DNA of 64,000 bases from contig CP070837.1 of the NCBI GenBank assembly GCA_020341815.1, positions 1,300,575 to 1,364,574 of the forward strand, read 5' to 3'. The notes beneath the pieces were generated by a model. The model had not been told where the DNA came from, made no database searches, and saw only the letters and a program-made list of their open reading frames with translations. Origin of the DNA: Candidatus Omnitrophota bacterium. GTDB taxonomy: Bacteria > Omnitrophota > Gorgyraeia > JAFGHF01. The position numbers and the translations under genes are program-made. Shown here piece after piece: positions 9,981 to 45,363 of this stretch. Position 1 is the first letter of the stretch. Each line of letters begins with the position of its first letter.

Positions 9981-10095
9981 TGAACCCCGCTCTTCCAAAA
10001 CATCACGCCTTGCATAAAAGATATGGGTGAAGGCGGTAGGAGGAAGGATGGGGATAAGGGTTTGGCATTACAAAGAAAGGAAGGGCGGGGTGAAG
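9981..10095 (+). repeat. MITE/REP-like inverted-repeat element, copy A (TIRs TGAACCCCGCTCTTCC ... GGAAGGGCGGGGTGAAG).
   Basis: It starts 2 nt after the upstream stop codon. Its interior is ~90% identical to copy B. The 3' terminus carries the GTG (10090) used as the bioY start. Confidence 0.7.
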
Positions 10096-12270: not shown

Positions 12271-12385
12271 TGAACCCCGCCCTTCCAAAACATCATACTT
12301 TGCATAATAGATATGGGCGAAGGTGGCAGGAGGAAGGATGGGGATAAGGGTTTGGCATTGCGAAGAAGGGAAGGGCGGGGTGAAG
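12271..12385 (+). repeat. MITE/REP-like element, copy B.
   Basis: It begins 3 nt after the bamD stop. The TIRs are TGAACCCCGCCCTTCC / GGAAGGGCGGGGTGAAG. The GTG at 12380 is the lptE start. Confidence 0.7.
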
Positions 12386-12940
12386 AGATTTAATTTTATA
12401 TTCTTATTATTGGCTATAGCATGCATGCAGGGTTGCGGCTATACCGCAGGTTCGCTGCTTCCTTCACACATCAAGACAATTCATATCCGCCCTTTCCGAA
12501 ATAAAATAGAGCTGACCGGGGAATTGAGACAGGAGGAATATCGTTTTCGCAGCTATCGCACGCATCTGGAAACGGATATCACCAAAGAGGTTATCTCGAG
12601 ATTCATAAACGACGGGCACCTCCAGGTGATTGATGAGAAAAATGCGGATGTAGTTTTGGAGGGTGAGCTGATCGATTATCTCAGCCAACCCGTGCGTTAC
12701 GGCTCCGATAACGAGACCGTCGAGGAATACAGAATCAGCATAGTCTGTTCCGTTAAGCTCAACGATATAAAGGAAAATAAACTTATGTGGCAGGAGTCGC
12801 GGATTATCGGCGATACCACTTATAGCGACAGCGACCAGAGTCAAGCGCGGGGATATTATACGAGCGAAAGCACTGCGGTATCCAGCGCTGTTTCCGATTT
12901 AGCCAGGCGCATTGTCAATCGCACCATTGAAGGATGGTAA
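12380..12940 (+). CDS. lptE: LPS-assembly lipoprotein LptE.
   Basis: From GTG 12380: 'VKRFNFIFLLLAIACMQGC|GY', a lipoprotein signal peptide with a lipobox. It lies immediately upstream of holA, the conserved lptE-holA synteny. ~185 aa. Confidence 0.55.
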   Translation: MKRFNFIFLLLAIACMQGCGYTAGSLLPSHIKTIHIRPFRNKIELTGELRQEEYRFRSYRTHLETDITKEVISRFINDGHLQVIDEKNADVVLEGELIDYLSQPVRYGSDNETVEEYRISIVCSVKLNDIKENKLMWQESRIIGDTTYSDSDQSQARGYYTSESTAVSSAVSDLARRIVNRTIEGW

Positions 12941-13806
12941 GCTCAAGAGAGGCACCAGTATATCTGCTCACCGGCAGCGAGCAATTCTTAAAAGAAGAAA
13001 ATCTCACTCGGATTAAATCCGCCCTTTTAGATGCGGCCTCGCGAGATTTCAACTTCAATGTCTTTTATGCAGGCTCCTGCGCGGTTAAGAAGATATTGGA
13101 ATGCGCCTCCACAGCGCCTTTTCTCGGGTCTAAAAGAGTGGTCCTGGTGCACCGAATCGAGGATTTTTCCGCCTCCGAAGAAAAGCTCATCCTTTCCTAT
13201 GTAAAAGTCCCCAATAAAGTTAGCGTGCTTATTCTAGAGACTTCAGAGAGCAATCTTAAACAGAGATTTTTTGCCGAGATTTGCAGGCATGCCCGGCTTA
13301 TTCGTTGTGATCCTCTTAAAGGAAGAGAGCTCGTCATTTGGCTTAAGAGGCAGGTTGCGGCCAAGGGTAAAAAAATAGAAGAGGCGGCCCTCCAGCTTTT
13401 ACTGGATACCTCAAGGCTTAGTTTGCAGGCTTTGGCTTTCTCTCTGGATAATCTTATTTTATATATCGGGCAGAAAGAGACGATTACCTGCGCTGACGTG
13501 GAGAAGTTAACCGGCTCAGACGATATGGCCTCAAGCGCATTTGAGCTTTATGATGCCGTTATTGCCGGTGAGAAAGAAAAATCTTTTGAGGTCCTGGAGA
13601 GTTTATGGAGAGATGGCGTAAGCTTCTCGCAGATCTTAGGGGCTTTAAGCTACAAGTTTATACTGAACAGGAATAGGATAAGTTCCGGCAGGCTCAAAGG
13701 CTATCTTTTGGATTTACAAAATACCGACAGGGATATCAAGACTTCAAGACAGGGACAAAAAATAGCGCTGGAACTTTTGACGGCGAGACTCTTAAACCTT
13801 GGTTAA
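12934..13806 (+). CDS. holA: DNA polymerase III delta subunit.
   Basis: N-terminus 'VYLLTGSEQFLKEE' with delta-subunit-like architecture; overlaps the lptE stop. Confidence 0.6.
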   Translation: MVSSREAPVYLLTGSEQFLKEENLTRIKSALLDAASRDFNFNVFYAGSCAVKKILECASTAPFLGSKRVVLVHRIEDFSASEEKLILSYVKVPNKVSVLILETSESNLKQRFFAEICRHARLIRCDPLKGRELVIWLKRQVAAKGKKIEEAALQLLLDTSRLSLQALAFSLDNLILYIGQKETITCADVEKLTGSDDMASSAFELYDAVIAGEKEKSFEVLESLWRDGVSFSQILGALSYKFILNRNRISSGRLKGYLLDLQNTDRDIKTSRQGQKIALELLTARLLNLG

Positions 13807-14052
13807 TTTTCGCATCAGGCGGGATTTTTTGCGCCAGGCTTTATTCTTATGAATTATCTTTTTGCTTGAGGCCTTATCTAATTTGGAGCTCAGCTGATTA
13901 AGTATCTTTTTTGCCTGCTCGACCTTTTTCTCATCCACAAGGGCTAAAAACTTCTTGTTTAAGGTCTTTAATTCAGAGATTGCCCCGATATTCCGCAGAT
14001 GTCTTTTTTTGGCCTTGCGCAGTTCTTTGAAGGCTGATTTTTTTATTGGCAT
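13792..14052 (-). CDS. rpsT: 30S ribosomal protein S20.
   Basis: 'MPIKKSAFKELRKAKKRHLRN...KKIIHKNKAWRKKSRL' is the S20 signature; divergent from murJ, as in many bacteria. Confidence 0.85.
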   Translation of the reverse strand: MPIKKSAFKELRKAKKRHLRNIGAISELKTLNKKFLALVDEKKVEQAKKILNQLSSKLDKASSKKIIHKNKAWRKKSRLMRKLTKV

Positions 14053-14118
14053 TATTTATTCCTCTTAATCTTTTGCCGCCTATTTGAGTACCAGTTAAGA
14101 TAACATATAAGGGGCGAT

Positions 14119-15759
14119 TTGTCAAGTATGGACGAAAATAAATCCCTGATAAAATCCACACGGGCAATCAGCGAGGCGACCTTTGCCAGCCGCATCCTGG
14201 GCTTTATCCGCGATGTTATCATCGCCCGGCTTTTTGGCACAGGCGTGCGCGCCCAGGCCTTTGTGGTGGCCTTTAGGATTCCTAACCTCTTGCGCAGCCT
14301 GGTGGGTGAAGGCGCCACAAATAGCGCCGTAGTGCCTGTCCTGGCCCGCCTGAATGAGCGGGGTAAAAGAGAGGAATTCTGGCAGGTGGCCAACTGCCTG
14401 TTGAATATCTTGATAGTAGTGCTGGCGGTCTTAACCTTACTGGGTGAGCTGCTTGCCCCGATTATCGTGCGCGCCATTGCCCCCGGCTTTATGAAGGACC
14501 CGCAGAAGCTATACCTGACTATACGGCTGACCAGATTTCTATTTCCTTATATTCTTCTGGTGGGCCTCTCCGCCTATGCGATGGCGGTATTGAACTCTCT
14601 TAAAAGCTTTGCCCTGCCAGCGCTTGCCCCCAGCATGCTTAATATCGCCCTGATTACCAGCGCCTTGATTTTCTGCCCGCGCTTAAAGGAGCCGGTTGAT
14701 GCCTTAGGCATAGGGGTGTTAAGCGGAGGGGTTCTGCAGTTAGCGGTCCAGGTGCCCCTGCTTCTCAAAAAGGGCCTGCTTAAAAAAAGAAGCTTTAGTT
14801 TTTTTCACCCCGCCCTTCTAAATACCACGCCTTACATAGGAGATGTGGGCGAAGGCAATAAAAAGAAGGGCGGGGTTCACCCCCGGGTAAAGGAGATGGG
14901 CAGGCTCTTTCTGCCGCGCACCTTAGGCATTGCAATATACCAGATTAATCTTTTTGTGGATACTATCTTTGCCTCTTTAACCTTTATAGTGGGTGAGGGC
15001 GCCCCGGCGGCCTTTCAGTATGCCAATCGCCTGGTGCAATTTCCCCTGGCCTTATTCGGCATAGCCTTAGCCCAGGCGGCACTGCCTGCTATGTCGGGCC
15101 TGGCCGCGCGCAAGGACTTTGCCCAGATGAGAAGGACGCTTTCCTTTTCTCTGCGCAGTGTTTTTACGATGATGCTGCCGGCCACGGTGGGGCTTATGGT
15201 GTTGGCACGCCCCCTGGTTAAGGTGATATTCGAGCGGGGCACCTTTAGCAGCTATTCTACGAACATCACCTCTTTTGTGCTTTTATTTTATTGTCTGGGG
15301 CTTACCGGCTATGCCGGCATAAAGGTGCTGGCCAGCTATTTCTACTCCCTGAAAGACACCTTTACCCCCAGTAAGGCAGCAGCCATTGCCCTGTTAATCA
15401 ATGTTATCTTAAACTTCCTTTTGATGCGGCCCTTAAAAATGGGGGGCCTGGCTTTGGCTACGGCAATCTCGGTTACAATTAATTTTGGCTGGCTTCTATT
15501 TGCCATGCGCAAGAGAATAGGAAAAATAGAGGGGCTTTTTGCTGCGCTGGGCAGGATTGTCTTGGCCGCCTCTATTATGGGGGCGGCTTTGTGGTTTGGC
15601 CTCTATCGCAGCGGGTTCCTCTGGGGCAGCGGGCTTATGCTTGCCTTTAAATTGTGCGCCTCTATTGCGCTGGGCGTATTGGTTTATTCGGGAGCCCTGA
15701 AGTTGCTTTCGCCTAGTGAGGCCGGGATATTTATCAGATGGATATTAAGGAGAAAATAA
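14119..15759 (+). CDS. murJ: Lipid II flippase MurJ, with a ~79-bp repeat element inserted in-frame.
   Basis: MurJ/MviN motifs ('RIPNLLRSLVGEGA', 'FLPRTLGIAIYQINLFVDTIFAS'). An extra ~25 aa ('SFSFFHPALLNTTPYIGDVGEGNKKKGGVHP') is encoded by the repeat copy at 14805-14883. Confidence 0.8.
   Translation: MSSMDENKSLIKSTRAISEATFASRILGFIRDVIIARLFGTGVRAQAFVVAFRIPNLLRSLVGEGATNSAVVPVLARLNERGKREEFWQVANCLLNILIVVLAVLTLLGELLAPIIVRAIAPGFMKDPQKLYLTIRLTRFLFPYILLVGLSAYAMAVLNSLKSFALPALAPSMLNIALITSALIFCPRLKEPVDALGIGVLSGGVLQLAVQVPLLLKKGLLKKRSFSFFHPALLNTTPYIGDVGEGNKKKGGVHPRVKEMGRLFLPRTLGIAIYQINLFVDTIFASLTFIVGEGAPAAFQYANRLVQFPLALFGIALAQAALPAMSGLAARKDFAQMRRTLSFSLRSVFTMMLPATVGLMVLARPLVKVIFERGTFSSYSTNITSFVLLFYCLGLTGYAGIKVLASYFYSLKDTFTPSKAAAIALLINVILNFLLMRPLKMGGLALATAISVTINFGWLLFAMRKRIGKIEGLFAALGRIVLAASIMGAALWFGLYRSGFLWGSGLMLAFKLCASIALGVLVYSGALKLLSPSEAGIFIRWILRRK
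14805..14883 (+). repeat. MITE/REP-like element, copy D (short variant), in-frame within murJ.
   Basis: The TIRs are TCACCCCGCCCTTC ... GAAGGGCGGGGTTCACCCC. The interior is homologous to copies A/B but with a ~45-bp deletion. Confidence 0.6.
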
Positions 15760-15871
15760 ACCCCGCCCTTCCTAAAAAACGTAAGTTAGGTATCAAAAAA
15801 AGAATTAGAGGACTTTACCTTTGCCAAAGAATATATGTAGACTAAGCAGAAAAATGAAGGGCGGGGTGAAG
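15757..15871 (+). repeat. MITE/REP-like element, copy C (divergent interior).
   Basis: It starts at the murJ stop (TAAACCCCGCCCTTCC) and ends GAAGGGCGGGGTGAAG. The uvrC ATG 15854 and GTG 15866 lie within it. Confidence 0.65.
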
Positions 15872-17263
15872 AGTTTTCCGGATAGCCCGGGCGTATATCT
15901 TATGAAGGATAAGCCCGGGCGCATACTTTATGTGGGCAAGGCCTCTTCCTTAAAGAGGCGAGTGAGCTCCTATTTCCAGAAGCCCCAAGCCGGCAAGACA
16001 CGAGTTTTGCTTTCGCGGACAAAAGATATAGAGTATATCCAGACCTCATCCAGCGCCCAGGCCTTATTGCTGGAGAATTCTTTAATCAAAAAGCACAGGC
16101 CTTATTATAACGCCGCCTTAAAAGACGATAAAAGTTATCCTTATGTGAAAGTCGACACGCCTCGTGCCTGGGGTGCAGTTACAATTACCAGAGGCAAAAA
16201 GGAAAAGGGCGCAAAATATTACGGGCCTTACACCAGTGTCAAATTGCTGAAGAGCGCAATCAAAACTTTAAGGGCGGTATTTCCCTTTAGAAGCTGCCGG
16301 CGCCTGCCTAAAAAACCCTGCCTTTATTTTCAGCTTAAGCTTTGTCCGGGGATGTGCATAAAAAAGATAGATAAAAAGGTTTATCGGGAAAACCTCAGGC
16401 AGCTGGGGTTATTCCTTGAGGGTAAGCACAAAGAGCTCATCTCGCAGCTCACGGATAAGATGCAAAAGGCCGCCAAGCGCGAATCCTTCGAAGAGGCGGC
16501 AATGCTGAGGGATAGAATTACCTCTTTATCGGAGATTATAACCCAGACCAAAGAGACGGGGCAGCAAGAGCTCATTTTTCAGCTTCAGAAGGAATTAAAT
16601 CTCACTCAAGCCCCCCGGCGCATCGAGGCCTTTGATGTTTCAGAGATTGCCGGAAGCGGCACAGTCGGCTCGATGGTTAGTTTCCTAGACGGAAAGCCCG
16701 ATAAAAACAATTATCGCAAGTTTAAGATAAAGACGGTAAAAGGCATTGATGACTATGCAATGATTTGTGAGGTCTTACGCCGCAGGTTCGCCAGGGCTCT
16801 CAAGAGCTCGCTTCCCGATTTGATTATGATTGACGGAGGGAAGGGCCATCTTTCATCAGCCCGTAAGGAATTGAGCGCTTTAGGGCTTTCGAAAATACCC
16901 GTTATTGCCCTGGCCAAGCGCCTGGAGAATATCTATACGCCTTCGGGTGAGGTCTTGAGCTTGCCTCGCGATTCAAAAGTATTACACCTCTTACAGCGCA
17001 TCCGTAATGAGGCGCACCGCTTTGCTATTTCCTATCACCGCAAATTGAGGCAAAAAGATATGCGCGCGTCTTTTCTGGATAAGATTGCCGGCATCGGCCC
17101 CAAAAAGAAAAGGGCTCTCCTGCGCCATTTTAAGTCTGCTCAGGCAATTAAAAAGGCAAGTGTAGAAGATTTGCTGAAGGTGAAAGGTATTGACAGGAAG
17201 ACAGCAGAAAGGATTATCAAATACTTAAAATTAAAGGATTTTTCTCAGTTTCCAACGAATTAA
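15854..17263 (+). CDS. uvrC: Excinuclease ABC subunit C.
   Basis: GIY-YIG module ('SPGVYLMKD...ILYVGKA'), a 'NEAHRFAISYHRKLR' endonuclease region and a C-terminal HhH ('KVKGIDRKTAERIIKYLK'). The start could instead be GTG 15866. Confidence 0.75.
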   Translation: MKGGVKSFPDSPGVYLMKDKPGRILYVGKASSLKRRVSSYFQKPQAGKTRVLLSRTKDIEYIQTSSSAQALLLENSLIKKHRPYYNAALKDDKSYPYVKVDTPRAWGAVTITRGKKEKGAKYYGPYTSVKLLKSAIKTLRAVFPFRSCRRLPKKPCLYFQLKLCPGMCIKKIDKKVYRENLRQLGLFLEGKHKELISQLTDKMQKAAKRESFEEAAMLRDRITSLSEIITQTKETGQQELIFQLQKELNLTQAPRRIEAFDVSEIAGSGTVGSMVSFLDGKPDKNNYRKFKIKTVKGIDDYAMICEVLRRRFARALKSSLPDLIMIDGGKGHLSSARKELSALGLSKIPVIALAKRLENIYTPSGEVLSLPRDSKVLHLLQRIRNEAHRFAISYHRKLRQKDMRASFLDKIAGIGPKKKRALLRHFKSAQAIKKASVEDLLKVKGIDRKTAERIIKYLKLKDFSQFPTN

Positions 17264-17321
17264 CTTAGTCTAGCTTATCAACTGTCCATCCTGTCTTTTA
17301 CGCCTAACGTCGCAAATAACC

Positions 17322-17373
17322 GATAGTCTAAAGCAGAGCGACGAAGAACGAGAAGCGCTGCTTTAGACTATCC
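17322..17373. repeat. 15-bp perfect inverted repeat (GATAGTCTAAAGCAG ... CTGCTTTAGACTATC) at the uvrC / low-GC island boundary.
   Basis: Direct reading; no downstream U-run, so not a canonical intrinsic terminator. Confidence 0.5.
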
Positions 17374-17433
17374 GAGTTAATTTACCTTGTTAGGTTTTGA
17401 CTAATTACCGCCTCCTGCTTAGGTGGTTTACAT

Positions 17434-18672
17434 TCATTTTATGTCGCTTCCATAGCTATAGAGGGAAAACTGCTTGAATGATGCTTCTTTATTACCCCAT
17501 AGTGCTGTTTTATTCAATGGGTCCCATTTCCAGGTACCGCTTTGATTGCTATATCTCGCCGCAGTTTCAATAACGTTACCACTACTCATTTTACGGATGT
17601 TCGCCATGATCATGGTTCCATTAGAGAGACTCGATATGTTGATTAAATTATCTCTGTTTGGATTTAAAAGAGAGGTTTTGCTATGCTCGGACCATGCGAC
17701 TCCGTCCGACGACTTATAAACAATAGTTCGCCATCCATGAAGAGAATCTCCGGCGCCAGAACCAGTTCCCGTTTGCTCACGATTCACTGCCAAAATGAAA
17801 CTGTCTGCGTCGTGAGTTACAGCAGGATTAGAATCTATTGTGGTGAACCCTGTGCTTGATAGATTAATTGCATTAATGTGTGAAGCCTGGAAAACTGGCA
17901 GGTTAAACGGAGGCATCATTTCCCCCACGGCTGTGACAACCTGGAAGGCCCCTGCCGAAAATTTGCGCCACGCGATTAGAATTTTTCCGTTACTGTGGTA
18001 TGTGACCGAAGGTCGGCCTTCAACGCCTGAGTTAAGTGTACCCTGCTCAAGAACTGGGGAAAAAAGGAAACTCCTTGAATTGTGATCGTAAATCTTTGCG
18101 ACAACTTTCTCGTTTTGTTGAAAAACGACCAATCGAAGGTCGCCACCCAGGTCTACTACGTCTGGCGCTGAATTTGTCTCGCCTGCTGGAAGAGCAGTAC
18201 CTGTAGTGTCCCAAATCGCCGGCCCAAGGCCCCAGACTGTTACTATCGTGTTCGGTTTGTCGAACAGAACCCATTGAAGTAGACCATCAAATCGCTTTGC
18301 TGTTGCACCAACTCCATGTGTGGCATTTAAGGTAGTGCTAACAGGGGAATAAACGTTCGGGAAGTTTCCATTCTCCCACATCAATCCATCCTTTGACCAA
18401 CGTACTTGGATCTTCGCCGTCGACCTGTTAGAGCCTGCTTCCATGAATGAAAAAACAAAATTCTCCTTGGATTCTGCGCTCTTGCCAACTAAGTCTTTTA
18501 TCATCTCTTGTCGTGCGGATTCAATAGTTTGAAGAACTTCCGGTTGAGCTCGTTCCAAAGTCTCAGCCCTTCTCAGAAGTGGATTGTCCTGTGCAACGAC
18601 ATTCTGAAGACTAAGAACTAATCCGATAAGTAATACAAATAGTAACTTCGTTGTAAACATTTGCTTTTTCAT
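17434..18672 (-). CDS. Secreted BNR/Asp-box beta-propeller protein (sialidase-like fold) encoded on an AT-rich island.
   Basis: Signal peptide 'MKKQMFTTKLLFVLLIGLVLSLQNVVAQ' and an Asp-box 'SSDGVAWSE'. Codon usage is visibly AT-richer at third positions than neighbouring genes. Confidence 0.4.
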   Translation of the reverse strand: MKKQMFTTKLLFVLLIGLVLSLQNVVAQDNPLLRRAETLERAQPEVLQTIESARQEMIKDLVGKSAESKENFVFSFMEAGSNRSTAKIQVRWSKDGLMWENGNFPNVYSPVSTTLNATHGVGATAKRFDGLLQWVLFDKPNTIVTVWGLGPAIWDTTGTALPAGETNSAPDVVDLGGDLRLVVFQQNEKVVAKIYDHNSRSFLFSPVLEQGTLNSGVEGRPSVTYHSNGKILIAWRKFSAGAFQVVTAVGEMMPPFNLPVFQASHINAINLSSTGFTTIDSNPAVTHDADSFILAVNREQTGTGSGAGDSLHGWRTIVYKSSDGVAWSEHSKTSLLNPNRDNLINISSLSNGTMIMANIRKMSSGNVIETAARYSNQSGTWKWDPLNKTALWGNKEASFKQFSLYSYGSDIK

Positions 18673-18780
18673 CTGTTCTCTCCTTTCGAATTAAAGATGG
18701 CTTCTCTGACAATCTAACTCTGCTCGTTTCTCACTAACGAATAAGGGAACTCACTTTTAATCTTCTAGTTACAACAGAAT

Positions 18781-19038
18781 CTAACGCCCAAAATGAGCGG
18801 TTTTTGGAGCAGCGAAGCTGCGTATATCTTTGACCGTTTTTTGGGGGAAGAGGTTACTCTGCATAAGGAAGCTCGCACCAGCAACAAGGGTTACTACTGA
18901 AAGAAGCTGAATACTTAACATCTTAACTGACCCGGCATGACCTATAGAGGCCGTGCTCAACGCTCGCATTATCGCTAAAGCGATAATGCCGCTAATTATC
19001 CCGACGAAAACACCAATACTGATTCCAATAAAATTCAA
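18781..19038 (-). CDS. Small two-TM membrane protein (hypothetical), same AT-rich island.
   Basis: Two hydrophobic helices; no recognisable family. Confidence 0.25.
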   Translation of the reverse strand: MNFIGISIGVFVGIISGIIALAIMRALSTASIGHAGSVKMLSIQLLSVVTLVAGASFLMQSNLFPQKTVKDIRSFAAPKTAHFGR

Positions 19039-19301
19039 GATGTTTCCTTTTCTTCTTCTTCCTTATGTTCTTCTTGCCCTAACATTCGAAATCAGGGGCA
19101 CAAGCCGCGCAATGGACCGCATCTGAATCGATGAGTGCCATATCTTCGATGGGTTTTATTTTAATATGTGGAATACATCTTTTCTGGATAGTTTTCAGTA
19201 ACTTTAGTCAATTATTTCATATTTCTCAGGCCTTGTCAAGAAAACCTTGCTTATTTTCTGCCTTTTCTTTATAATGCCACAAGAGGTAGATTCTGTTTAA
19301 A

Positions 19302-19637
19302 ATGAAAGAATATACCCCCTTCCAACGCAAGGTTTTCAAAGCAGTTTCGGCAGTTCCCTTTGGCCGGAGGCGCAGCTACCAGTGGGTGGCCAGGCGAATA
19401 GGCATGGGCCTTGCTTTGAAGAAAAACAAAGACTTATTTATTGTGCCCTGCCATAGGGTTGTAATGGCCGATGGCGCCCTCGGCGGTTATGTTTTGGGTA
19501 AAAAAATGAAGAAAATCCTTTTAGGTTTGGAGGAGAGATTGACGGGGGCAAGGGCCATCTTTCATCGGCCCTTAGAGGAGCTGCTCAAGGTAAAGGGTAT
19601 TGATAGAAAAGCCGCAAAAAATATTCTCAAATATTAG
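19302..19637 (+). pseudogene. Chimeric ORF: a paralog of the methylated-DNA-protein-cysteine methyltransferase DNA-binding domain fused to a uvrC 3' fragment.
   Basis: Residues 1-~80 are ~85% nt-identical to the intact ogt-like gene at 20500 and retain PCHRV, but 'RPHAARAV' is deleted. From 19540 the sequence matches uvrC 16832-16864 and then uvrC ~17165-17230 (…GKGHLSSA…LKVKGIDRK…). The junction falls at an ATTGAC microhomology. Confidence 0.5.
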
Positions 19638-19638
19638 A

Positions 19639-20364
19639 ATGAATGTTAAAGAATTATATCTAAAGAGCAAAGACAACAATCGCCTGGCGATAAACATAAT
19701 TTCCGGGGCTAAGGATAAGGTTATAATTATCTGTCCCGGATTTTTTCAAAGCAAAGATACGCCTACTTTTGGCGCCATTGCCAATTCTTTTGGGGAAGAT
19801 TTTGACATAATAAGCGTAGATATGAGGGGCCATGGACGAAGCGGCGGTCTGTGCACCTTTGGGGTAAAAGAGGAAGAGGACTTAAGCGTAATTATAGATT
19901 ACGCCAGAGAAAGATACAAGCGCATAGGGATGCTTGCCTTTTCTTTAGGCGCATTGGCATGCGTAAATTATGTCTCCGGAAGCGACAGGGTGAACAGTTT
20001 AGTTTTGGTAAGCGCCCCCATGGCCTTTGAGGAAATAGAAAACCAGTTCTGGAAGCCCTCGGCGGTAAAGACCGGCCTGCGCGGCCTGGAAAAGTCAGCG
20101 GGGGCAAGACTCGGCAATCCTTTCCTGGATAAGAAAAAGCCCATTGAGGTAATAGGTAAGGTTTCGCCTACCCCTGTATTGTTTATCCACGGGCAGGCAG
20201 ACCCTATTGTTAGCGTGCGGCACAGCAGGGCGCTGTATAAGGCAGCAGGTGAGCCTAAGAAACTGGTGATATTTGATAAGGGCAGCCATGCCCAGGAGTT
20301 ATTTCAGGATTGTAAAGAGAAGTTTGTAAGTGAAATACAGGCGTGGTTTAAAAAGACGTTATGA
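19639..20364 (+). CDS. Alpha/beta-hydrolase fold protein.
   Basis: A GxSxG-like nucleophile elbow ('AFSLGA') and a C-terminal 'GSHAQ' His. Start taken at ATG 19639, just after the chimeric ORF's stop. Confidence 0.5.
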   Translation: MNVKELYLKSKDNNRLAINIISGAKDKVIIICPGFFQSKDTPTFGAIANSFGEDFDIISVDMRGHGRSGGLCTFGVKEEEDLSVIIDYARERYKRIGMLAFSLGALACVNYVSGSDRVNSLVLVSAPMAFEEIENQFWKPSAVKTGLRGLEKSAGARLGNPFLDKKKPIEVIGKVSPTPVLFIHGQADPIVSVRHSRALYKAAGEPKKLVIFDKGSHAQELFQDCKEKFVSEIQAWFKKTL

Positions 20365-20499
20365 AAAATTATTATTTTTATCCATAACATCCGAAATAAC
20401 CGGCCAAAAAGCGTAGGGGACGGCCGGCTGGCCGCCCGATTTATTATAATTATATATTGTAGGGGCATGGTTTCCGCGCCCGTTAATTTTTTCTATAAA

Positions 20500-20775
20500 A
20501 TGAAAGAATATACCCCCTTCCAACGTAAAGTCTTTAAAGCGGTTTCGACAATCCCCTTTGGCCAGAGGCGCAGTTACCGGTGGGTGGCCAAGAGAATAGG
20601 TCGCCCTCATGCCGCCAGGGCCGTGGGGCTTGCCTTGAAGAAGAATAAAGACCTGTTTGTCGTGCCCTGCCACAGGGTAGTAAGGGCGGATGGCGCAATT
20701 GGGGGTTATGTCCTGGGTGGGGAAATCAAGAAGATGCTTTTGGATTTGGAGAAGAAATTGACTCAAAAGGCTTAG
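20500..20775 (+). CDS. ogt: Methylated-DNA-[protein]-cysteine S-methyltransferase, DNA-binding/active-site domain only (Ogt/Ada-C-like).
   Basis: 'TPFQRKVFKAV...RPHAARAVGLALKKN...VVPCHRVV' carries the PCHR active-site motif. About 90 aa, with no N-terminal domain. Confidence 0.65.
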   Translation: MKEYTPFQRKVFKAVSTIPFGQRRSYRWVAKRIGRPHAARAVGLALKKNKDLFVVPCHRVVRADGAIGGYVLGGEIKKMLLDLEKKLTQKA

Positions 20776-20777
20776 CT

Positions 20778-20786
20778 TGGTATAAT
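20778..20786 (+). promoter_or_regulatory. Extended -10 promoter element (TGgTATAAT) upstream of prfB.
   Basis: TGGTATAAT lies 25 nt upstream of the prfB ATG, and the RBS AGGGAGG is at 20803-20809. Confidence 0.4.
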
Positions 20787-20810
20787 ATTCTACTAACCCT
20801 TAGGGAGGAA

Positions 20811-21912
20811 ATGATGCTGGATGATTTGAAGGCAAGACTTAAAACTATGGCCGAGCGCCTGGAGCAGCTGCGAGGTTATCTTTGACGTAGACAAAAAAGG
20901 GGCGCGGATAAAGGATATCGAAGGCCGGATGTCTCATCCGCAATTCTGGAAGGACAGCAAAAAGGCCCAGGAGCTGATTGGTGAATTAAAGGGCTTAAGG
21001 AATAGCTGTCTGGGCTGGAAAAAGGCCAAGGAGCAGCACGCGGATTTGGAGGAGCTTGCCGAGGTTGTGGAGAGTGAGGATACTTCAAGTCTTGAGTATC
21101 TGGATAGAGACCTTAGGCAATTATCCAGCGATATAGATAAACTTGAGTTTACCACTCTGCTTAGCGGCGAGGAAGATAAAAATAACGCCATCCTGAGCAT
21201 TCACGCCGGGGCCGGAGGAACCGAATCCTGCGACTGGACAGGGATGCTTGCGCGGATGTATCTTCGCTGGACCGAGAGAAAAGGCTTTGTTGCCTCGACA
21301 CTGGACTTTCTGCCGGGTGAGGAAGCGGGCACAAAAAATATCACTATCCTGATAAAAGGCGAATACGCCTATGGCTACCTCAAAGCAGAGAGCGGGGTGC
21401 ACCGCCTGGTACGCATCTCTCCCTTTGATGCCAATAAGCGCCGGCATACCTCATTTGCCTCTGTAGATGTGATTGCCGAGATAAGTGATGAGATTAAAGT
21501 AGAAATAAAACCCGAAGATTTAAAGATAGATACTTTTCGCTCTTCCGGAGCCGGCGGACAGCACGTAAACGTGACTGATTCGGCGGTGCGCATAACTCAC
21601 CTGCCCACGGGCATCATTGTCCAGTGCCAGAACGAGAGATCGCAGTTTAAAAACAAGTCGCAGGCCTTGAAGGTATTGCGCGCCCGGCTTCACGAAAGAG
21701 AAAAGGAAGAGCAGAGGAAAAAGCTGGAGGCCGGTTACGCCGCCAAGCAGGATATTGCCTGGGGCAGCCAGATTCGCTCCTATGTCCTGCACCCTTATAC
21801 TATGGTCAAAGACCACCGCACCAATTACGAGAAGGGAAACGCAAGTGGCGTATTGGACGGCGATATCGATGAGTTTATCGAGGCCTATCTCAAATGGAAG
21901 GTTAAAAAATAA
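20811..21912 (+). CDS. prfB: Peptide chain release factor 2 with a programmed +1 ribosomal frameshift (frame 0 20811-20882; +1 frame 20884-21912).
   Basis: Frame 0 encodes 'MMLDDLKARLKTMAERLEQLRGYL' and then reaches CTT TGA C, the canonical RF2 autoregulatory frameshift site. The +1 frame continues 'DVDKKGARIKDIEGRMSHPQFW...' through the SPF and GGQ motifs. Confidence 0.85.
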
Positions 21913-24789
21913 ATGTTTGGATTTTTGCTGAACAAGATTGTCGGCTCACAAAGCGAGCGCACCTTAAAACGCTTTAAGCCCCTGGTGGATAGAATCAACG
22001 GCCTTGAAGGGACTGTATCTTCCCTTAGCGACGATGAGCTTAAAGGAAAGACCCGGGAGTTTAAAGAGCGTATCGCAAAAAGTGCCGCCGCCTATCAGGA
22101 CGCTTTAGGGGATTTGGAGCGTCAGCTGGGGGAGGTGGCTATCCCTCAGGAGAAGCAGAAAATAAAAGTCAAGATAAGGGACATCAATAACAAAATCTTA
22201 GAAGACGTTTTACCTGAGGCCTTTGCCGTGGTGCGCGAGGCGGCCCGCCGCACTATCGGCCTGCGCCATTACGATGTGCAGCTTATGGGGGCGATGACAC
22301 TGCATTACGGAATGATTGCCGAGATGAGTAACGGCGAGGGAAAGACCCTCGTGGCTACCCTTACCGCCTATCTCAATGCCTTAAGGGGCAGGGGCGTGCA
22401 CGTGGTCACGGTCAATGATTATCTCGCCCGGCGCGACCGCTACTGGATGGGGCCGGTTTATGAGTTTTTGGGTCTTTCCGTCGGTGTCATTCAGAACGAT
22501 ATGGATGATGAAGAAAGGCAAAAGGCCTACAATTGCGACATCACCTACGGCACGAATAATGAATTTGGCTTTGATTATCTGCGCGACAATATGAAGTTTC
22601 GCCGGGAGCAGATGGTTCAGAGAGAGTTTCATTACGCTATCGTCGATGAGGTGGACAGCATCTTAATCGATGAGGCCAGGACGCCTTTGATTATCTCCGG
22701 GCCGGCTGAGGAAGCCACCGATAAATATTATCAGGCCGATAAGATTGCCCGCAAATTAAAAGGGAAAAAGATTACCGATAAGGAAGAGATAGAAGCCAAA
22801 TACAGGGACATAGACTTAACCGCCGGCTTTGATTTTATCATCAAGGAAAAGGAGCATCTGGTTTATCTTACCGAGGAGGGTGAGAAAAAGGCAGCCGGGA
22901 TGTGGGGCGTGGATAACCTTAATACAATCGAGACAATGCCCCTTAAGCACCTCACCCAGCAGGCCCTGCGCGCCCACAGCGTCCTTTTCCAGCGCGATGT
23001 AAATTACATAGTCAAGGAAGGCCAGGTGATTATCGTCGATGAGTTTACCGGGCGCCTGATGCCCGGCAGGCGCTGGAGCGACGGGCTGCATCAGGCCGTT
23101 GAGGCCAAAGAGGGGGCAAAGATCGAAAGAGAAAATCAGACCTTAGCCACGGTTACTTTTCAGAACTATTTTCGTATGTATGAGAAACTCGCCGGAATGA
23201 CCGGAACGGGTTCCACCGAAGCCGCGGAGTTCGGCCACATCTATAGCCTGGATATAGTTACTATTCCCAATAACAGACCGCCGGTTCGCCAGGATTTGGC
23301 CGATGTTATCTATAAAACAGAAAAGGAAAAGTTCCGCTCAGTCGTGGAAGAGGTGGTCGAAAGCCGCAAAAAGGGGCGTCCGGTTCTGGTGGGCACTATC
23401 TCCATCGAGAAATCCGAACATTTAAGCGACCTCCTGAAGCAGCGCGGCATACCTCACAATGTCTTAAACGCCAAGTATCATGAAATGGAGGCGCACATCG
23501 TGGCCCAGGCCGGGCGCATAAATGCGGTTACTATCGCCACCAATATGGCCGGACGAGGCACCGATATCCGCTTGGGCGGAAATGCGGAGTTTATGGCCGA
23601 TGACATCTTGCGCCAGAAAAAGATCGGGCCGCATGATGCAGGTTATCACGAGGAGCGAAAAGGGCTTCTTGATGTTCTTATCCCTAAGGTTTCGGCGGAA
23701 CGCGAGAAGGTTTTGGAGTTAGGCGGGCTTTATGTCCTGGGCACAGAGCGCCATGAGTCGCGGCGGATAGATAATCAGCTGCGCGGGCGTTCCGGGCGCC
23801 AGGGTGTGGCCGGCGCCTCGCGATTTTATCTTTCGCTGGAGGATGATTTGATGCGTATCTTTGCCTCGGAGAGGATTTCCCGGGTTATGGATTTCTTCAA
23901 GTGGGAAGAGTCCGTGCCTATAGAGCATGCCTTGATTACCAGAAGCATCGAGACCGCCCAGAAAAGGGTAGAGGGACACAATTTCGAAATCAGAAAACAG
24001 CTTTTGCAGTATGACAATGTGATGAACCGCCAGAGAGAGGTGATTTATGATGAAAGGCGCCGCGTCCTGGAAAGCGCAAGGCTCAAAGAGCATATCTTTG
24101 AGATGATAGATGAAATGCTGGAGGCCATTTTCGGCCTTTATGCCAATGAAGGTATTCCTGCCGAGGAATGGAATCTGGTGGGACTGAAGAATCACATCAG
24201 GTCGAAGTTTTTCCTGGAGATGGAAGATTTTCCGGCGGGAAGACCCATTGGCCAGATGCGTCAGGATGTTCGGGACAAAATTTATGCCGCCTACGAACAG
24301 AAAGAGCTCGCTTTCGGCAGAGAGAAGTTGGAGCACATAGCCCACATTATTCTTCTTCAGGTGATTGACGCAAAATGGAAGGACCATTTATACAACATGG
24401 ATTTCCTGCGCGAAGGAATCGGCCTGCGCGGCTACGGGGGGCACGACCCTCTGGTGGAATATCAGCGCGAAGGATATGATATGTTTAGCCGGATGGTCGA
24501 GAGCATTAAAGATGAGGCCCTTGAGTTTATCTTTAAGGCCCGCCCGGTAAAAGAAGAGAGGGTCTCCGGTGTCTTTGCGCAGATTCCCCAGCAGTTTTTG
24601 CATCCGGAAAGCGCAAAAGTCAAGGATCTGCCTTCGCAAAAGGAAAAGCCTCTTCCGGAAGCTCCGCCCCGGCCCGCAACTGAGGCACCGCGTCCTTTTA
24701 AGAGAGAAAAAGATAAAATCGGCCGTAATCAACCCTGTCCCTGCGGCAGCGGTAAGAAGTATAAAAAGTGCTGTGGCAGGGACAGTTAA
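21913..24789 (+). CDS. secA: Preprotein translocase ATPase SecA.
   Basis: DEAD-motor motifs and a C-terminal zinc finger 'CPCGSGKKYKKCCG'; the start abuts the prfB stop. Confidence 0.9.
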   Translation: MFGFLLNKIVGSQSERTLKRFKPLVDRINGLEGTVSSLSDDELKGKTREFKERIAKSAAAYQDALGDLERQLGEVAIPQEKQKIKVKIRDINNKILEDVLPEAFAVVREAARRTIGLRHYDVQLMGAMTLHYGMIAEMSNGEGKTLVATLTAYLNALRGRGVHVVTVNDYLARRDRYWMGPVYEFLGLSVGVIQNDMDDEERQKAYNCDITYGTNNEFGFDYLRDNMKFRREQMVQREFHYAIVDEVDSILIDEARTPLIISGPAEEATDKYYQADKIARKLKGKKITDKEEIEAKYRDIDLTAGFDFIIKEKEHLVYLTEEGEKKAAGMWGVDNLNTIETMPLKHLTQQALRAHSVLFQRDVNYIVKEGQVIIVDEFTGRLMPGRRWSDGLHQAVEAKEGAKIERENQTLATVTFQNYFRMYEKLAGMTGTGSTEAAEFGHIYSLDIVTIPNNRPPVRQDLADVIYKTEKEKFRSVVEEVVESRKKGRPVLVGTISIEKSEHLSDLLKQRGIPHNVLNAKYHEMEAHIVAQAGRINAVTIATNMAGRGTDIRLGGNAEFMADDILRQKKIGPHDAGYHEERKGLLDVLIPKVSAEREKVLELGGLYVLGTERHESRRIDNQLRGRSGRQGVAGASRFYLSLEDDLMRIFASERISRVMDFFKWEESVPIEHALITRSIETAQKRVEGHNFEIRKQLLQYDNVMNRQREVIYDERRRVLESARLKEHIFEMIDEMLEAIFGLYANEGIPAEEWNLVGLKNHIRSKFFLEMEDFPAGRPIGQMRQDVRDKIYAAYEQKELAFGREKLEHIAHIILLQVIDAKWKDHLYNMDFLREGIGLRGYGGHDPLVEYQREGYDMFSRMVESIKDEALEFIFKARPVKEERVSGVFAQIPQQFLHPESAKVKDLPSQKEKPLPEAPPRPATEAPRPFKREKDKIGRNQPCPCGSGKKYKKCCGRDS

Positions 24790-42980: not shown

Positions 42981-44065
42981 GGTGCGCGGCGCATCAGCAT
43001 TATGGCGACGGTGGAGAAGAGGAAATTGGCAAACCACGCCGATATAATCGGCGGCAGAGTTCCGCCTTTACCTAAAGCAAGGCTTAGGGCCTCTACCGTG
43101 TAATAGAAGAAGGCAATGACTACCGAAAGCCCGATACTGGCTACTTTTCCGGTGCCTTGCGTAGAAAGGGCAAAAGGGATACCCAAGAATATAATTATCA
43201 AACTGACAAAGGGAAAAGAAATCTTATAATGCAAATCCACCAGCAGCTTCTGCACAATCTTGGCTCCGCTTCCCGAGAGCCTCCTGATATATTCTCTTAA
43301 TTTCTGGTAATTCATAAACTCAGCCGAGGCCTCCCGCCTTAGGAAGTCCTTGGGCTTTTCTTCGATACCGATGAGCATCTTCTTGAAAAAGGCCGGCTCG
43401 GCATTTTCCTCTTCCTTATCGTTAAAATTGTAAACAACGCAGTCATTGAATGCCCACTTATTTCCCTGCCATTGTGCGCTTTTGGCCTGAATCTTGGCGA
43501 TAACCCGTTCCTCATTATCCTGCTCCAGGATAGTTATTTCTTCAAGGAGGTTGCTCTTGGTGTAGAATTTGCGCACATGAATGAGGCGGTTGTGCGCCCC
43601 GTAAAGAGCGATATTTTCCACTATTCTCTCTTGGAGCTGTGCCTTTTCTTTATCAAGATGTTCTTCTTTTACGGTGGCCGAAACAAGGTTTGCCTGAGGA
43701 ACGATTTTATCGTTAATCACCAGCGTAGCCATGCTGATAACTATCCCCAGGAAGAAAAAAGGCAGCACCATTCTCCAGATGCTTAAGCCCGTTGCTTTAA
43801 GGGCGATTATTTCATTGTATTTACTGAGATTTCCCAGTATATAGAGGGTGGAAAGAAGTGCTGCGATAGGCGCGGTGCGCACAAAGATTATCGGCAGAAA
43901 GGCCCCGTAATACTGAAGAAGCACTGACCATTCCACATGGTGTTTAAGGATATCCTCCAGGCGGCCGCAGAGGTCAATAACTACATAGAGGCTAATAAAC
44001 ACCGTCAGGCAGTAGAAAAAGGGCACCAGGAATTCTCTGACTATATAGCGGTCGATTATTTTCAC
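42974..44065 (-). CDS. lptG: LPS export ABC permease LptG/LptF family (YjgP/YjgQ).
   Basis: 'KIIDRYIVREF' N-terminus with six TM helices. The GTG start at 44063-65 lies inside repeat copy E. Confidence 0.7.
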   Translation of the reverse strand: MKIIDRYIVREFLVPFFYCLTVFISLYVVIDLCGRLEDILKHHVEWSVLLQYYGAFLPIIFVRTAPIAALLSTLYILGNLSKYNEIIALKATGLSIWRMVLPFFFLGIVISMATLVINDKIVPQANLVSATVKEEHLDKEKAQLQERIVENIALYGAHNRLIHVRKFYTKSNLLEEITILEQDNEERVIAKIQAKSAQWQGNKWAFNDCVVYNFNDKEEENAEPAFFKKMLIGIEEKPKDFLRREASAEFMNYQKLREYIRRLSGSGAKIVQKLLVDLHYKISFPFVSLIIIFLGIPFALSTQGTGKVASIGLSVVIAFFYYTVEALSLALGKGGTLPPIISAWFANFLFSTVAIMLMRRAPK

Positions 44066-44196
44066 CCCGCCCTTCCTTTCATCTCATCGTAATCTTAGGT
44101 CCAATTTTAACTTTGCTAGACTGTCTCTGCATTGCTTTATAGCTTTTACCCTTGCCCTTAATTGTAAGTATGCGGTTTTAGGAAGAGCGGGGTTCA
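44062..44196 (-). repeat. MITE/REP-like element, copy E (between lptF stop and lptG start).
   Basis: The TIRs are TCACCCCGCCCTTCC ... GGAAGAGCGGGGTTCA with a unique interior. The GTG-bearing terminus faces lptG. Confidence 0.6.
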
Positions 44197-45290: not shown

Positions 45291-45363
45291 CCCGCTCTTC
45301 CTTTCTTCCCAATACCACTTGCCTATCCCCAATCCTTCCGATGTTTAGGAAGGGCGGGGTTCA
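45287..45363 (-). repeat. MITE/REP-like element, copy F (between comF stop and lptF start).
   Basis: The TIRs are TCACCCCGCTCTTCC ... GGAAGGGCGGGGTTCA. Confidence 0.6.

Follow-up and report, generated by a model that had tools for sequence, protein, structure and literature searches.

A chimeric ogt/uvrC open reading frame at a microhomology joint in a Candidatus Omnitrophota bacterium

The uvrC-ogt region and its relatives

The window analysed here is the whole stretch of 64,000 nucleotides from a Candidatus Omnitrophota contig. As listed in Table 1, uvrC is followed by an islet with two minus-strand ORFs, a promoter module, a chimeric ogt/uvrC ORF, a hydrolase gene and an intact ogt-like gene, downstream of which lies prfB. 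In an independent assembly of the locus (L081, below), uvrC was called with 469 aa, and the HHH_5-type C-terminal profile of uvrC scored 55.9 bits. The Rfam scan of the region gave no match, no tRNA was found in 13000-23000, and none of the 28 scanned ORFs of the window encoded a tyrosine recombinase or integrase.

Table 1. Features of the uvrC-ogt region, in window coordinates.
Feature	Position	Strand	Remark
uvrC, full length, parent of both fragments	15854..17263	+	Pfam GIY-YIG, UVR, UvrC_RNaseH, HHH_5
uvrC source of piece 1	16828..16869	+	starts GATTGAC, codons of the conserved MIDGGKGH motif
uvrC source of piece 2	17163..17234	+	second HhH motif to the old uvrC stop
r0, degenerate third ogt 5' copy (-4 to +33)	17226..17262	+	now the uvrC C-terminal extension
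attC-like imperfect palindrome, 94 nt	17302..17395	-	downstream of the beta-propeller gene
Secreted beta-propeller protein, 412 aa	17434..18672	-	coding part of the mobile unit 17305-18779
85-aa ORF, two hydrophobic segments	18781..19038	-	islet ORF
Ancestral ogt promoter module	19192..19297		aligns to L082 104-209, directly 5' of the intact ogt of L082
Chimeric ogt/uvrC ORF, 111 aa	19302..19637	+	unique fusion of an ogt copy and two uvrC 3' pieces
21-nt deletion site	19403..19404	+	removes RPHAARAV (start of recognition helix, arginine finger), M in its place
Joint 1, (G)ATTGAC microhomology	19537..19543	+	ogt +262 joined to uvrC +1008
Joint 2, TAGAGGA, imperfect microhomology (TA-AGGA / TAGAAGA)	19573..19579	+	overlap of two BLAST alignments
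Alpha/beta-hydrolase gene, 241 aa, inserted	19639..20364	+	ATG 1 nt past the chimera stop
Possible weak relic, 3' half of attC-like/terminator element	20376..20412	-	hydrolase-ogt spacer
Intact ogt-like gene, 91 aa, MGMT C-terminal domain only	20500..20775	+	PF01035 101 bits, TIGR00589 103 bits

The synteny murJ-uvrC-(ogt)-prfB runs across Omnitrophota, and uvrC directly abuts ogt in four relatives (L001, L002, L004 and L027). A hydrolase between uvrC and ogt was absent in every relative among the 80 genome loci. This comparison identifies uvrC adjacent to ogt as the ancestral state; given the adjacency in relatives, the hydrolase is an insertion, as is the islet. The first-pass annotation had implied an ancestral order uvrC-hydrolase-ogt and suggested looking for relatives with this order and no islet. 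None was found in the 80 loci and the hydrolase homologues lie elsewhere, so that order was rejected. In L083, DUF2442/DUF4160 sit between uvrC and ogt; in L082, the gene at this boundary is another one, on the minus strand. The boundary is a variable spot in this clade, with unrelated gene units gained and lost there.

No Shine-Dalgarno motif was found at the hydrolase start. The hydrolase homologues lie in unrelated contexts, and the best non-self homologue is 54% identical and at another locus. Derivation of the hydrolase start from the ogt start was considered and rejected: the nearest homologue, P0027, begins MPIEEFYLE compared with MNVKELYLK here, and at most ATGAA is common to ogt. Because the nearest homologue starts similarly, the hydrolase N-terminus is native.

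The last 12 codons of uvrC form an extension unseen in relatives, whose UvrC ends ...IIKHLR* or ...IKYFR*. This extension is r0 (LKLKDFSQFPTN). In a fixed-register global alignment against the two other ogt 5' ends (19298-19333 and 20496-20531), r0 scored 10, compared with -7.6 +/- 3.5 for shuffled sequences. At most 1 of 20000 shuffles and 0 of 12720 other windows reached this score. When the uvrC tail and the ogt start were aligned locally across a wide search space, no alignment reached significance; the fixed-register test alone did. We read r0 as a mark of the ancestral adjacency of uvrC and ogt.

The core of the promoter module is ~90% identical to that of L082, the nearest relative. It contains a predicted plus-strand promoter (TTGCTT-17-TATAAT) and a predicted divergent minus-strand promoter (TTGACA-17-AATAAT, 19239-19211). 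The ancestral ogt promoter therefore stands 5' of the chimera and not of the intact ogt, while L082 has the module with a single intact ogt and no duplication. The intact ogt of the window aligns to M. tuberculosis OGT (4bhb) and keeps its ancestral downstream neighbour prfB. Together, intact ogt and prfB are 90.5% identical to L082.

The islet and its attC-like element

The AT shift of the islet is real but modest. GC3 was 0.42 in the beta-propeller ORF (412 aa) and 0.44 in the 85-aa one, compared with 0.549 +/- 0.053 for 50 long ORFs (z about -2.4, tied lowest among long ORFs), and total GC was 0.45 compared with 0.47. The AT-rich codon usage reported for this stretch was thus confirmed. Classical genomic islands have a border tRNA or integrase and a marked shift in composition; here neither border element is present and the GC3 z is only about -2.4.

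The 412-aa protein had been described as a secreted BNR/Asp-box protein. Its N-terminus resembles a signal peptide, and it carries a single Asp-box that is invariant in the family (S321-x-D323-G324-x-x-W327), but no BNR match in Pfam or NCBIfam was found. AlphaFold models it as a generic beta-propeller (pLDDT 81). The 85-aa ORF matched no family and has no homologue in the beta-propeller units of relatives. The islet is composite, with just 17305-18779 common to homologous units elsewhere. Such units occur in L087 (89% nucleotide identity), L088 and L089, each with different neighbours, and homology to the L087 unit stops at 17305, within R' GTTAGGC.

The element downstream of the beta-propeller gene reads, on the gene strand, R'' ACCTAAC ... 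R' GTTAGGC; no other RYYYAAC-N40-130-GTTRRRY pair occurs in the window. attC sites are imperfect palindromes of 57-141 nt with RYYYAAC and GTTRRRY ends (PMC5027507). The fold energy of the element is -41 kcal/mol (z -6.4), and compensatory changes were seen at 13 of 25 pairs over four homologous units. The inverted repeat noted in the first-pass annotation at 17322-17373 does contain 15 perfect base pairs; the whole repeat is 18 bp with one mismatch (17322-17339 / 17355-17372). It had been taken for the left boundary of the islet. It is instead the central stem of this attC-like or terminator hairpin.

As in integron cassettes (PMC5027507; IntegronFinder papers), the beta-propeller unit ends in an attC-like palindrome and occurs in four contexts with homology ending in R'; its variable, compensated central stem may be a further resemblance. 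The L089 element has canonical 5/6-nt spacers and a bulged base, and L087 carries two co-oriented elements, the second one upstream and weak (20 bits, E 0.02). In contrast to integron cassettes, the window has no integrase and only one clear site, its spacers are atypical (internal loops of 3/3 nt), and the unit lies between housekeeping genes. Neither two or more attC sites (the CALIN criterion) nor an integrase with a nearby attI accompanies the unit. The attC-like end nevertheless hints at integron-type cassettes circulating in Omnitrophota.

With the covariance model, no second significant attC-like copy was found in the 64 kb. The best additional hit, 20379-20458, scored 11 bits (E 0.2). 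The possible relic in the hydrolase-ogt spacer is identical to 17296-17322 at 21 of 27 positions (p ~0.006) and resembles the L087 element (p ~0.012).

The chimeric reading frame

We searched 19250-19700 against the window with BLASTN, and three matches were returned. The first aligned 19298-19543 with 20496-20762 at 203/246 (82.5%) identity outside one 21-nt gap (E 4e-56). The high identity to ogt and the internal deletion described in the first-pass annotation were thus recovered, with 82.5% in place of ~85% and 21 nt (RPHAARAV to M) in place of 24 nt. The spacing of the matching segments in the two copies shows the deletion as well (1219 compared with 1198). Piece 1, 19537-19579, matched uvrC 16828-16869 at 38/43 (88%, E 7e-9), and piece 2, 19573-19643, matched uvrC 17163-17234 at 54/72 (75%, E 3e-7). 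After DUST masking both uvrC matches persisted (E 2e-9 and 7e-8), and both exceeded 1000 shuffles (z 13.7 and 12.0). The similarity to uvrC, for which masking of low complexity had been named as the critical check, is far above chance. The annotation was therefore right that an ogt paralog is fused to two non-contiguous uvrC 3' pieces at ATTGAC.

The ogt part of the chimera comprises ogt codons 1-88, followed by the ATTGAC joint to the uvrC fragments. At the protein level, residues 1-81 are ogt-derived, 82-91 come from piece 1 and 92-111 from piece 2. Piece 1 is out of the uvrC frame and reads GARAIFHRPL; piece 2 (EELLKVKGIDRKAAKNILKY) is the only piece read in the uvrC frame. The (G)ATTGAC of joint 1 is present in both parents, at 16828-16834 in uvrC and at 20757-20762 in ogt, where the ATTGAC falls in the -35 box of a prfB promoter predicted by the promoter scan. 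Joint 2 marks a 293-nt deletion within the uvrC fragment. After the uvrC tail follows an ogt-start remnant, TTAGAATGAA. A separate candidate, TAACATYCGAAAT as a genome-wide repeat, was rejected, as only 3 copies exist, one of them in a coding region.

The source is a metagenome assembly, and microhomology joints are typical of chimeric reads, so an assembly or chimeric-read artefact was considered. However, the pieces match their parents at 75-89% and not at 100%; being 11-25% diverged, they are not assembly copies. A k-mer assembler cannot be led astray by overlaps as short as 6-7 nt, and the ORF has remained open, with changes that favour synonymous sites. Moreover, the independent Logan assembly (L081, SRR14739666) gives the same 9.5 kb with 100% identity across window positions 12330-21786. 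We regard an artefact as hardly credible.

The chimera passes the MGMT cut-offs (PF01035 67.9 bits, cut-off 27; TIGR00589 70.4 bits, cut-off 46.4). In an alignment of 24 sequences it retains most invariant family positions, and PCHRV (P49 C50 H51 R52 V53) is invariant with the chimera included. The recognition helix with the arginine finger (P-x-A-A/V-R-A-V) is missing, whereas all 23 other sequences keep P-x-A-x-R. According to established structures of human and mycobacterial MGMT, this arginine is the finger that flips the base. The deleted RPHAARAV aligns to the GAARAV / AARAV recognition helix of M. tuberculosis OGT (4bhb).

The tail is the second HhH motif only (residues 92-111), that is, half of an (HhH)2 domain. 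It scored 14-17 bits against HHH_5, HHH_3 and HHH (E 0.007-0.05), below the cut-offs of 24-27, and the chimera does not carry the two HhH motifs of the UvrC (HhH)2 domain (PF14520, PF12826). The AlphaFold model has a pLDDT of 60, below 50 in the active-site region, and is uninformative without an intact control. The first-pass annotation correctly noted PCHRV and one HhH-like motif. Its suggestion of a decoy or DNA-binding protein is unsupported, given the loss of the recognition helix and arginine finger and a tail below the Pfam thresholds. Because the helix and arginine finger are deleted, the chimera is most likely a decaying, probably non-functional ogt copy that presumably cannot act as a normal alkyltransferase. 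Like the chimera, ATL proteins (S. pombe Atl1, PDB 3gva, matched in the search) are small MGMT-fold proteins with no canonical alkyltransferase activity. ATLs, however, lack the cysteine but retain the helix and arginine finger, and they bind damaged DNA; the chimera has the cysteine and has lost both helix and arginine. For annotation, the chimera is a warning that an ORF can score above the MGMT thresholds without the part needed for DNA binding.

The two ogt copies differ with dN/dS 0.105, as low as between orthologues. On the chimera branch, nonsynonymous and synonymous changes numbered ~10 and ~8, respectively (P = 0.034 in a test against neutrality). These values indicate that selection constrained the left copy over a large part of its history, something not expected of a simple dead-on-arrival relic. 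This bears on the possibility that the chimera is a selected gene, an MGMT fold with a reactive cysteine, without the helix and with a single HhH, serving as a regulator, sensor or hydrolase partner. In its favour, besides the branch counts, PCHRV and most invariant positions are kept, the ORF has stayed open 3' of a conserved promoter through ~0.4 synonymous divergence per site on the branch, and piece 2 is in the uvrC frame with mostly synonymous differences (10 compared with 6 nonsynonymous; hand count on the BLASTN alignment). However, a segment kept by every relative is missing, and of the ~10 replacements 6 fall close together within the final 15 codons of the ogt part. The linker comes from uvrC read out of frame, the HhH motif does not reach the profile cut-offs and the AlphaFold confidence is low. 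After 25-40 random substitutions, a frame this long would still be free of stops with P 0.2-0.3, so the intactness of the chimera was rejected as proof of selection. Low dN/dS is also expected if the copy worked as ogt until recently. Among 5.8e9 proteins there was no second example bar one identical copy, and JGI metagenome contigs gave 0 matches to a degenerate joint pattern and 0 to the promoter core. We consider a selected gene unlikely. The decaying copy may persist as a promoter-proximal leader of the hydrolase.

Origin of the joint

Our preferred explanation, to which we give roughly an even chance, is that a duplicative rearrangement at the uvrC|ogt boundary produced the chimera as its novel joint. 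The topology agrees with this: ogt, the downstream gene, runs into uvrC, the upstream one, without a change of orientation, at ogt +262 and uvrC +1008, and the complete parents lie outside. The first-pass annotation had likewise proposed duplication with illegitimate joining, and ATTGAC stands at the joint and in both parents. It is also conserved in the uvrC and ogt of relatives. Colinear remnants, a uvrC tail and then an ogt-start remnant (r0 in one copy, the remnant after the chimera in the other), occur in both copies, and both may also carry the tail of an attC-like/terminator element. Synonymous divergence is roughly equal for the two repeat pairs, with pS 0.52 between the ogt copies and ~0.56 for the uvrC pieces (hand count, 13 of ~23 sites). 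On the other side, the copy interiors (islet and hydrolase) differ almost entirely, and only the ends and short relics match. The duplication reading must therefore assume several later events. The colinear relic in the hydrolase-ogt spacer, one of these matches, is weak by the p values and covariance-model E given above.

Under the duplication reading, the interval from uvrC +1008 to ogt +262 would have been duplicated head to tail, with its ends joined at ATTGAC. This hexamer would have been kept by uvrC for the I-D codons of MIDGGKGH and by ogt for the -35 box of the prfB promoter. The left ogt copy would have retained the ancestral promoter, lost its last 4 codons and gained 30 uvrC codons. 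The right copy would have retained the native 3' end and prfB, and is taken as the working gene. A later 293-nt deletion at the second microhomology would have shortened the uvrC fragment, and the interior of the right-hand copy would have been remodelled by gain of the hydrolase and loss of most other sequence. The 21-nt deletion in the left copy would have removed the DNA-recognition helix and arginine finger. The sequences themselves show the anatomy, the original adjacency, where the promoter lies and the helix loss; the order of these steps and an origin within this genome are what we infer. The chimera now probably matters only as a promoter-proximal ORF, which would be transcribed from the old ogt promoter. 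Since the hydrolase has no Shine-Dalgarno motif and starts 1 nt past the chimera stop, we propose that the two may be coupled.

Codon 74 (AAA compared with GGG) and four further sites place the chimera outside a group of intact ogt and L082. This tree implies that the duplication predates the split from L082 and that L082 later lost it, perhaps through recombination within the 5' stretch of 30 identical nt. Synonymous divergence between the two copies is ~0.9. Bacterial RecA-independent tandem duplications reportedly have join points at short homologies or microhomologies. As in those join points, the joint here is head to tail, shares few bases and creates a fusion ORF with intact parents outside. 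In contrast, the interiors no longer match, and the joint is old (~0.9 synonymous divergence), whereas most described duplications are young and unstable. On this reading, the rearrangement is an ordinary, readable duplication scar of a known kind, and our understanding of DNA repair and recombination is unchanged by it. It does provide a clean, datable case of a microhomology joint creating a fusion ORF in a streamlined genome (1.55-Mb contig) of an uncultured phylum.

The unlike interiors would follow in one step from homology-facilitated illegitimate recombination (HFIR), as described for natural transformation. In this process, uvrC-hydrolase-ogt-prfB DNA of a related strain would have entered the cell, recombined homologously in ogt/prfB at its right end, and been joined in uvrC at its left end to the resident ogt at ATTGAC. 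The ogt part of the chimera would then be the resident orthologue and the intact ogt that of the donor. This accounts for the orthologue-like dN/dS of 0.105, and the position of the chimera outside intact ogt and L082 needs no loss in L082. The boundary is also a site of unit turnover among relatives. HFIR joints are given as 3-10 bp of microhomology in the summary in PMC6382021, which cites de Vries & Wackernagel 2002, and the 6 bp here lie inside this range. However, a uvrC-hydrolase-ogt strain is absent from the 80 genome loci and the protein database, where the best non-self hydrolase is the 54% homologue from another locus. Identity to L082 was examined along ogt-prfB for a step of the kind a crossover would leave, and none was seen. 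pS to L082 is similar for the chimera (0.37) and the intact ogt (0.41), so no foreign half is seen, and natural competence in Omnitrophota is presupposed. As far as that summary describes the process (de Vries & Wackernagel 2002; Prudhomme 2002; PMC6382021), HFIR likewise combines a homologous anchor with a 3-10 bp joint and thereby places foreign DNA beside conserved genes. Its usual outcome there is replacement or deletion, whereas a partial duplication is found here. We regard HFIR as possible but somewhat unlikely, and retain duplication as the preferred reading.

The first-pass annotation viewed the chimera as collateral damage of a horizontal insertion of the low-GC islet. The islet is indeed adjacent, absent from relatives at this position and slightly AT-shifted. 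However, the joint faces the hydrolase side, and the ancestral promoter module, present in L082 without the duplication, parts the islet from the chimera. The joint is therefore not a by-product of islet arrival. The islet also has its own flanking repeat (r0 / ogt start) and is composite. We consider this link very improbable.

A broader joint reading would combine three claims. The uvrC|ogt boundary would be a dedicated landing site for integron-type cassettes or single-gene units, with no local integrase; each insertion would survive only by duplicating the uvrC-stop/ogt-start overlap, which would account for three nested ogt 5' copies; and one event would have made a chimeric protein with the cysteine, an MGMT fold without the helix and an HhH motif, on which selection would act, for instance in a role as leader coupled to the hydrolase or as its partner. 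We consider this combination quite unlikely. More generally, this normally stop-start coupled housekeeping boundary can be a recurrent site of gene-unit turnover.

Composition of the chimeric ORF

The host is an uncultured Omnitrophota bacterium whose UvrC shares 69% and 65% identity with those of the nearest species representatives (L001 and L002). Its ogt product is recorded at NCBI as "MGMT family protein" (P0003), on a 1,553,238-bp contig.

Positions of genes and elements in the window, and of attC-like elements in loci with beta-propeller homologues
Feature	Position	Strand	Remark
murJ	14119-15759		first of the listed order
uvrC	15854-17263
attC-like element	17302-17395	minus	after the beta-propeller gene
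Secreted protein	17434-18672	minus	412 aa
Hydrophobic ORF	18781-19038	minus	85 aa
Chimeric ORF	19302-19637	plus
Alpha/beta hydrolase	19639-20364
ogt-like gene	20500-20775		91 aa; MGMT C-terminal domain only
prfB, then secA			downstream of ogt
attC-like elements, L087	221-289, 1688-1781
attC-like element, L088	1981-2076
attC-like element, L089	1703-1789
Repeat family copies	9984-10091, 12274-12381, 14807-14876, 15760-15867, 44064-44193, 45289-45360

We searched the chimera region against the whole window by BLASTN. The stretch 19298-19543 matches ogt (20496-20762) with 203/246 identities and a single 21-nt gap (E = 4e-56), 19537-19579 matches uvrC 16828-16869 at 88% (E = 7e-9), and 19573-19643 matches uvrC 17163-17234 at 75% (E = 3e-7). 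Both uvrC matches were kept under DUST masking and each exceeded 1000/1000 shuffles (z of 13.7 and 12.0). The ogt/uvrC chimera with two non-contiguous uvrC pieces, described in the first-pass annotation, is thus confirmed; its internal deletion in the ogt part is 21 nt by alignment instead of 24 nt.

Neighbouring segments share GATTGAC (19537-19543) at the first joint and TAGAGGA (19573-19579) at the second, so both joints lie on microhomologies. At the first, ogt +262 meets uvrC +1008; the two run in one direction, and each complete parent lies outside the joint. The second is a 293-nt deletion inside the uvrC fragment. In the chimera's reading frame, the first uvrC piece is out of the uvrC frame and the second is in frame. 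The fragment is followed by TTAGAATGAA, matching the old junction TTAAAATGAA, ahead of the hydrolase sequence proper. The layout of the first joint is characteristic of join points left by head-to-tail duplication. The proposed duplication with illegitimate joining did occur, so the original interpretation is right in part. An artefact would be a remote explanation, less likely than both main readings discussed below; an independent Logan assembly (L081, SRR14739666) is identical across 9.5 kb.

In M. tuberculosis OGT (4bhb) the counterpart of the deleted RPHAARAV is, by alignment, GAARAV, known from structural work as the recognition helix with its arginine finger. P-x-A-x-R is kept at this position in 23/23 other short-MGMT family members. 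The chimera retains PCHRV and an MGMT profile match (68-70 bits), and its tail is a single HhH motif under every Pfam threshold. With the helix segment deleted and the tail sub-threshold, its suggested function as a decoy or DNA-binding protein needs revision. Among 5.8 billion collected protein sequences, the architecture recurs only in an identical copy called from an internal Met, and a degenerate joint pattern gave no matches in JGI contigs. Since the chimera stops 1 nt before a hydrolase start that lacks a Shine-Dalgarno sequence, its most plausible residual role would be as first ORF of a putative promoter-chimera-hydrolase(-ogt) unit.

Both ogt copies share an identical 30-nt 5' stretch (TAAAATGAAAGAATATACCCCCTTCCAACG; 19298-19327 and 20496-20525), with synonymous divergence of about 50% elsewhere; the stretch may have been kept alike by gene conversion, or the region where translation starts may be constrained. 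The ATTGAC of ogt is conserved because it belongs to the -35 box of a strong promoter-like site before prfB (TTGACT-17-(TG)TATAAT, 20757-20786), which is embedded in the ogt 3' end and conserved in L001, L002, L082 and L083. prfB has a classical programmed +1 frameshift site, CTT TGA C, at 20880-20886 (region 20811-20886), so the mechanical ORF list holds its downstream 327 codons only.

The uvrC-ogt boundary in relatives

The Omnitrophota-wide order is murJ-uvrC-(ogt)-prfB, and ogt starts at, or a few bases from, the uvrC stop in four relatives (L001, L002, L004 and L027). Neither the hydrolase nor the 412-aa gene lies between uvrC and ogt in any relative examined. Hydrolase homologues are common in the phylum in unrelated contexts (best non-self match, 54%). 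The hydrolase must therefore have been inserted too, and the uvrC-hydrolase-ogt ancestor that had been expected is not borne out. The N-terminus of the hydrolase is the one native to its family. L083 (6421-6934) and L084 have two opposite-strand genes, DUF2442 and DUF4160, between uvrC and ogt. The boundary is variable, and the pair in L083 shows that it was struck independently. The UvrC match of L004, L027 and L036-L039 ends near residue 412, short of the (HhH)2 domain, which may be absent or strongly diverged there; ogt follows about 20-45 nt later in L004 and L027.

The 12 codons that extend the window's uvrC at its end (17226-17262) form a degenerate copy of the ogt start, positions -4 to +33. 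Their score under global alignment in fixed register was 10 (shuffles, -7.6 +/- 3.5), a value reached by at most 1/20000 shuffles and 0/12720 other windows. This third ogt fragment marks the old uvrC|ogt adjacency, and the ogt start thus lies on both sides of the islet as a direct repeat of 37 nt. We infer that uvrC stop and ogt start abutted or overlapped, so that only insertions duplicating the junction would have left both genes intact and survived.

In the nearest relative, L082 (90.5% identity over ogt-prfB), another minus-strand gene is followed by a promoter module and a single intact ogt. The counterpart of this module (TTGCTT-17-TATAAT plus divergent TTGACA-17-AATAAT) in the window is 19192-19297 by alignment, so that it precedes the chimera instead of the intact ogt. 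The chimera therefore occupies the ancestral ogt position, and the intact ogt has the ancestral downstream side.

Divergence of the ogt copies and origin of the joint

By Nei-Gojobori, the chimera and the intact ogt differ with dS 0.89, dN 0.093 and omega 0.105; dS to L082 is 0.51 for the chimera and 0.60 for the intact copy. Site patterns (16, 26 and 8) and shared derived states favour the tree ((intact ogt, L082), chimera). Codon 74 is clearest: AAA in the chimera and outgroups, GGG in the intact copy and L082. The copies thus split at about the time of the L082 split or slightly earlier.

On the chimera branch, about 10 nonsynonymous and 8 synonymous changes could be polarised (P = 0.034 against neutrality), and six of the replacements lie among the final 15 ogt codons. 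By chance, an ORF this long would stay open with P 0.2-0.3. Together with the low omega, these values show constraint during part of the copy's history; they do not imply selection on the present helix-less form. A selected neo-protein seems improbable, less so than an artefact but below both main readings.

Equal synonymous divergence of both repeat pairs, colinear remnants and the promoter position fit a single duplication. One head-to-tail duplication of the uvrC-to-ogt interval would have been followed by deletions and unit turnover within the copies, a history to which we give about an even chance. Its main rival is homology-facilitated illegitimate recombination, a process described in PMC6382021, with DNA of a related strain bearing the hydrolase between uvrC and ogt. 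This accounts more economically for the tree, for interiors that differ between the copies and for an omega like that of orthologues, but the donor arrangement is known nowhere among the data searched and an identity step is not visible; we hold it possible but rather unlikely. Under duplication or recombination alike, the chimera is today an ogt copy, truncated and without the helix, that sits behind the old promoter. The locus is a fresh instance of known processes: microhomology-mediated duplication joints or such recombination, fusion pseudogenes and cassette-like gene turnover. The claimed tie to islet insertion needs revision, as a chimera formed as its collateral is very improbable, again below both main readings.

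The islet and its attC-like element

A switch to AT-rich third positions had been reported. Such a shift is real, though slight: the two minus-strand ORFs have GC3 values of 0.42 and 0.44 vs 0.549 +/- 0.053 for the window. The 412-aa protein is modelled as a generic beta-propeller with one invariant Asp-box. Close homologues of its gene (86, 83 and 72% aa) sit beside other neighbours on their contigs, and nucleotide homology to L087 (89%) is limited to 17305-18779.

The inverted repeat once read as the islet's left boundary forms the central stem within an imperfect palindrome of 94 nt. On the 412-aa gene's strand this palindrome starts with ACCTAAC and ends with GTTAGGC, as do integron attC sites with their RYYYAAC and GTTRRRY termini (PMC5027507). 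Its fold energy is -41 kcal/mol (z of -6.4), and 13/25 pairs show compensatory changes across four homologous units. The L089 version has canonical 5/6-nt spacers and ...TCAAAC-GTTAGGT. L087 homology stops inside the GTTAGGC core, and a second co-oriented element lies upstream of the L087 gene. In four different contexts a homologous beta-propeller gene is followed by such an element, its central stem compensated, which suggests that integron-type cassettes occur in Omnitrophota. There was no integrase among 28 window ORFs scanned and no second significant attC-like element in the window. We therefore class the beta-propeller unit as probably a lone integron-type cassette; at a minimum it is a mobile unit of gene plus terminator. 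A 27-nt stretch past the hydrolase (20376-20402) resembles the element's 3' tail (p about 0.006 and 0.012), with a weak covariance-model score.

A separate family of repeats also occurs in the window; its members measure about 70-130 nt and carry 13-bp inverted repeats at their ends (ACCCCGCCCTTCC ... GGAAGGGCGGGGT). Its half-sites number 12 vs 0.17 expected, and two copies are about 95% identical across 100 nt. One copy lies within the murJ ORF and another between murJ and uvrC. The family had no Rfam match; it may represent a structured RNA or an element of MITE or REP type.
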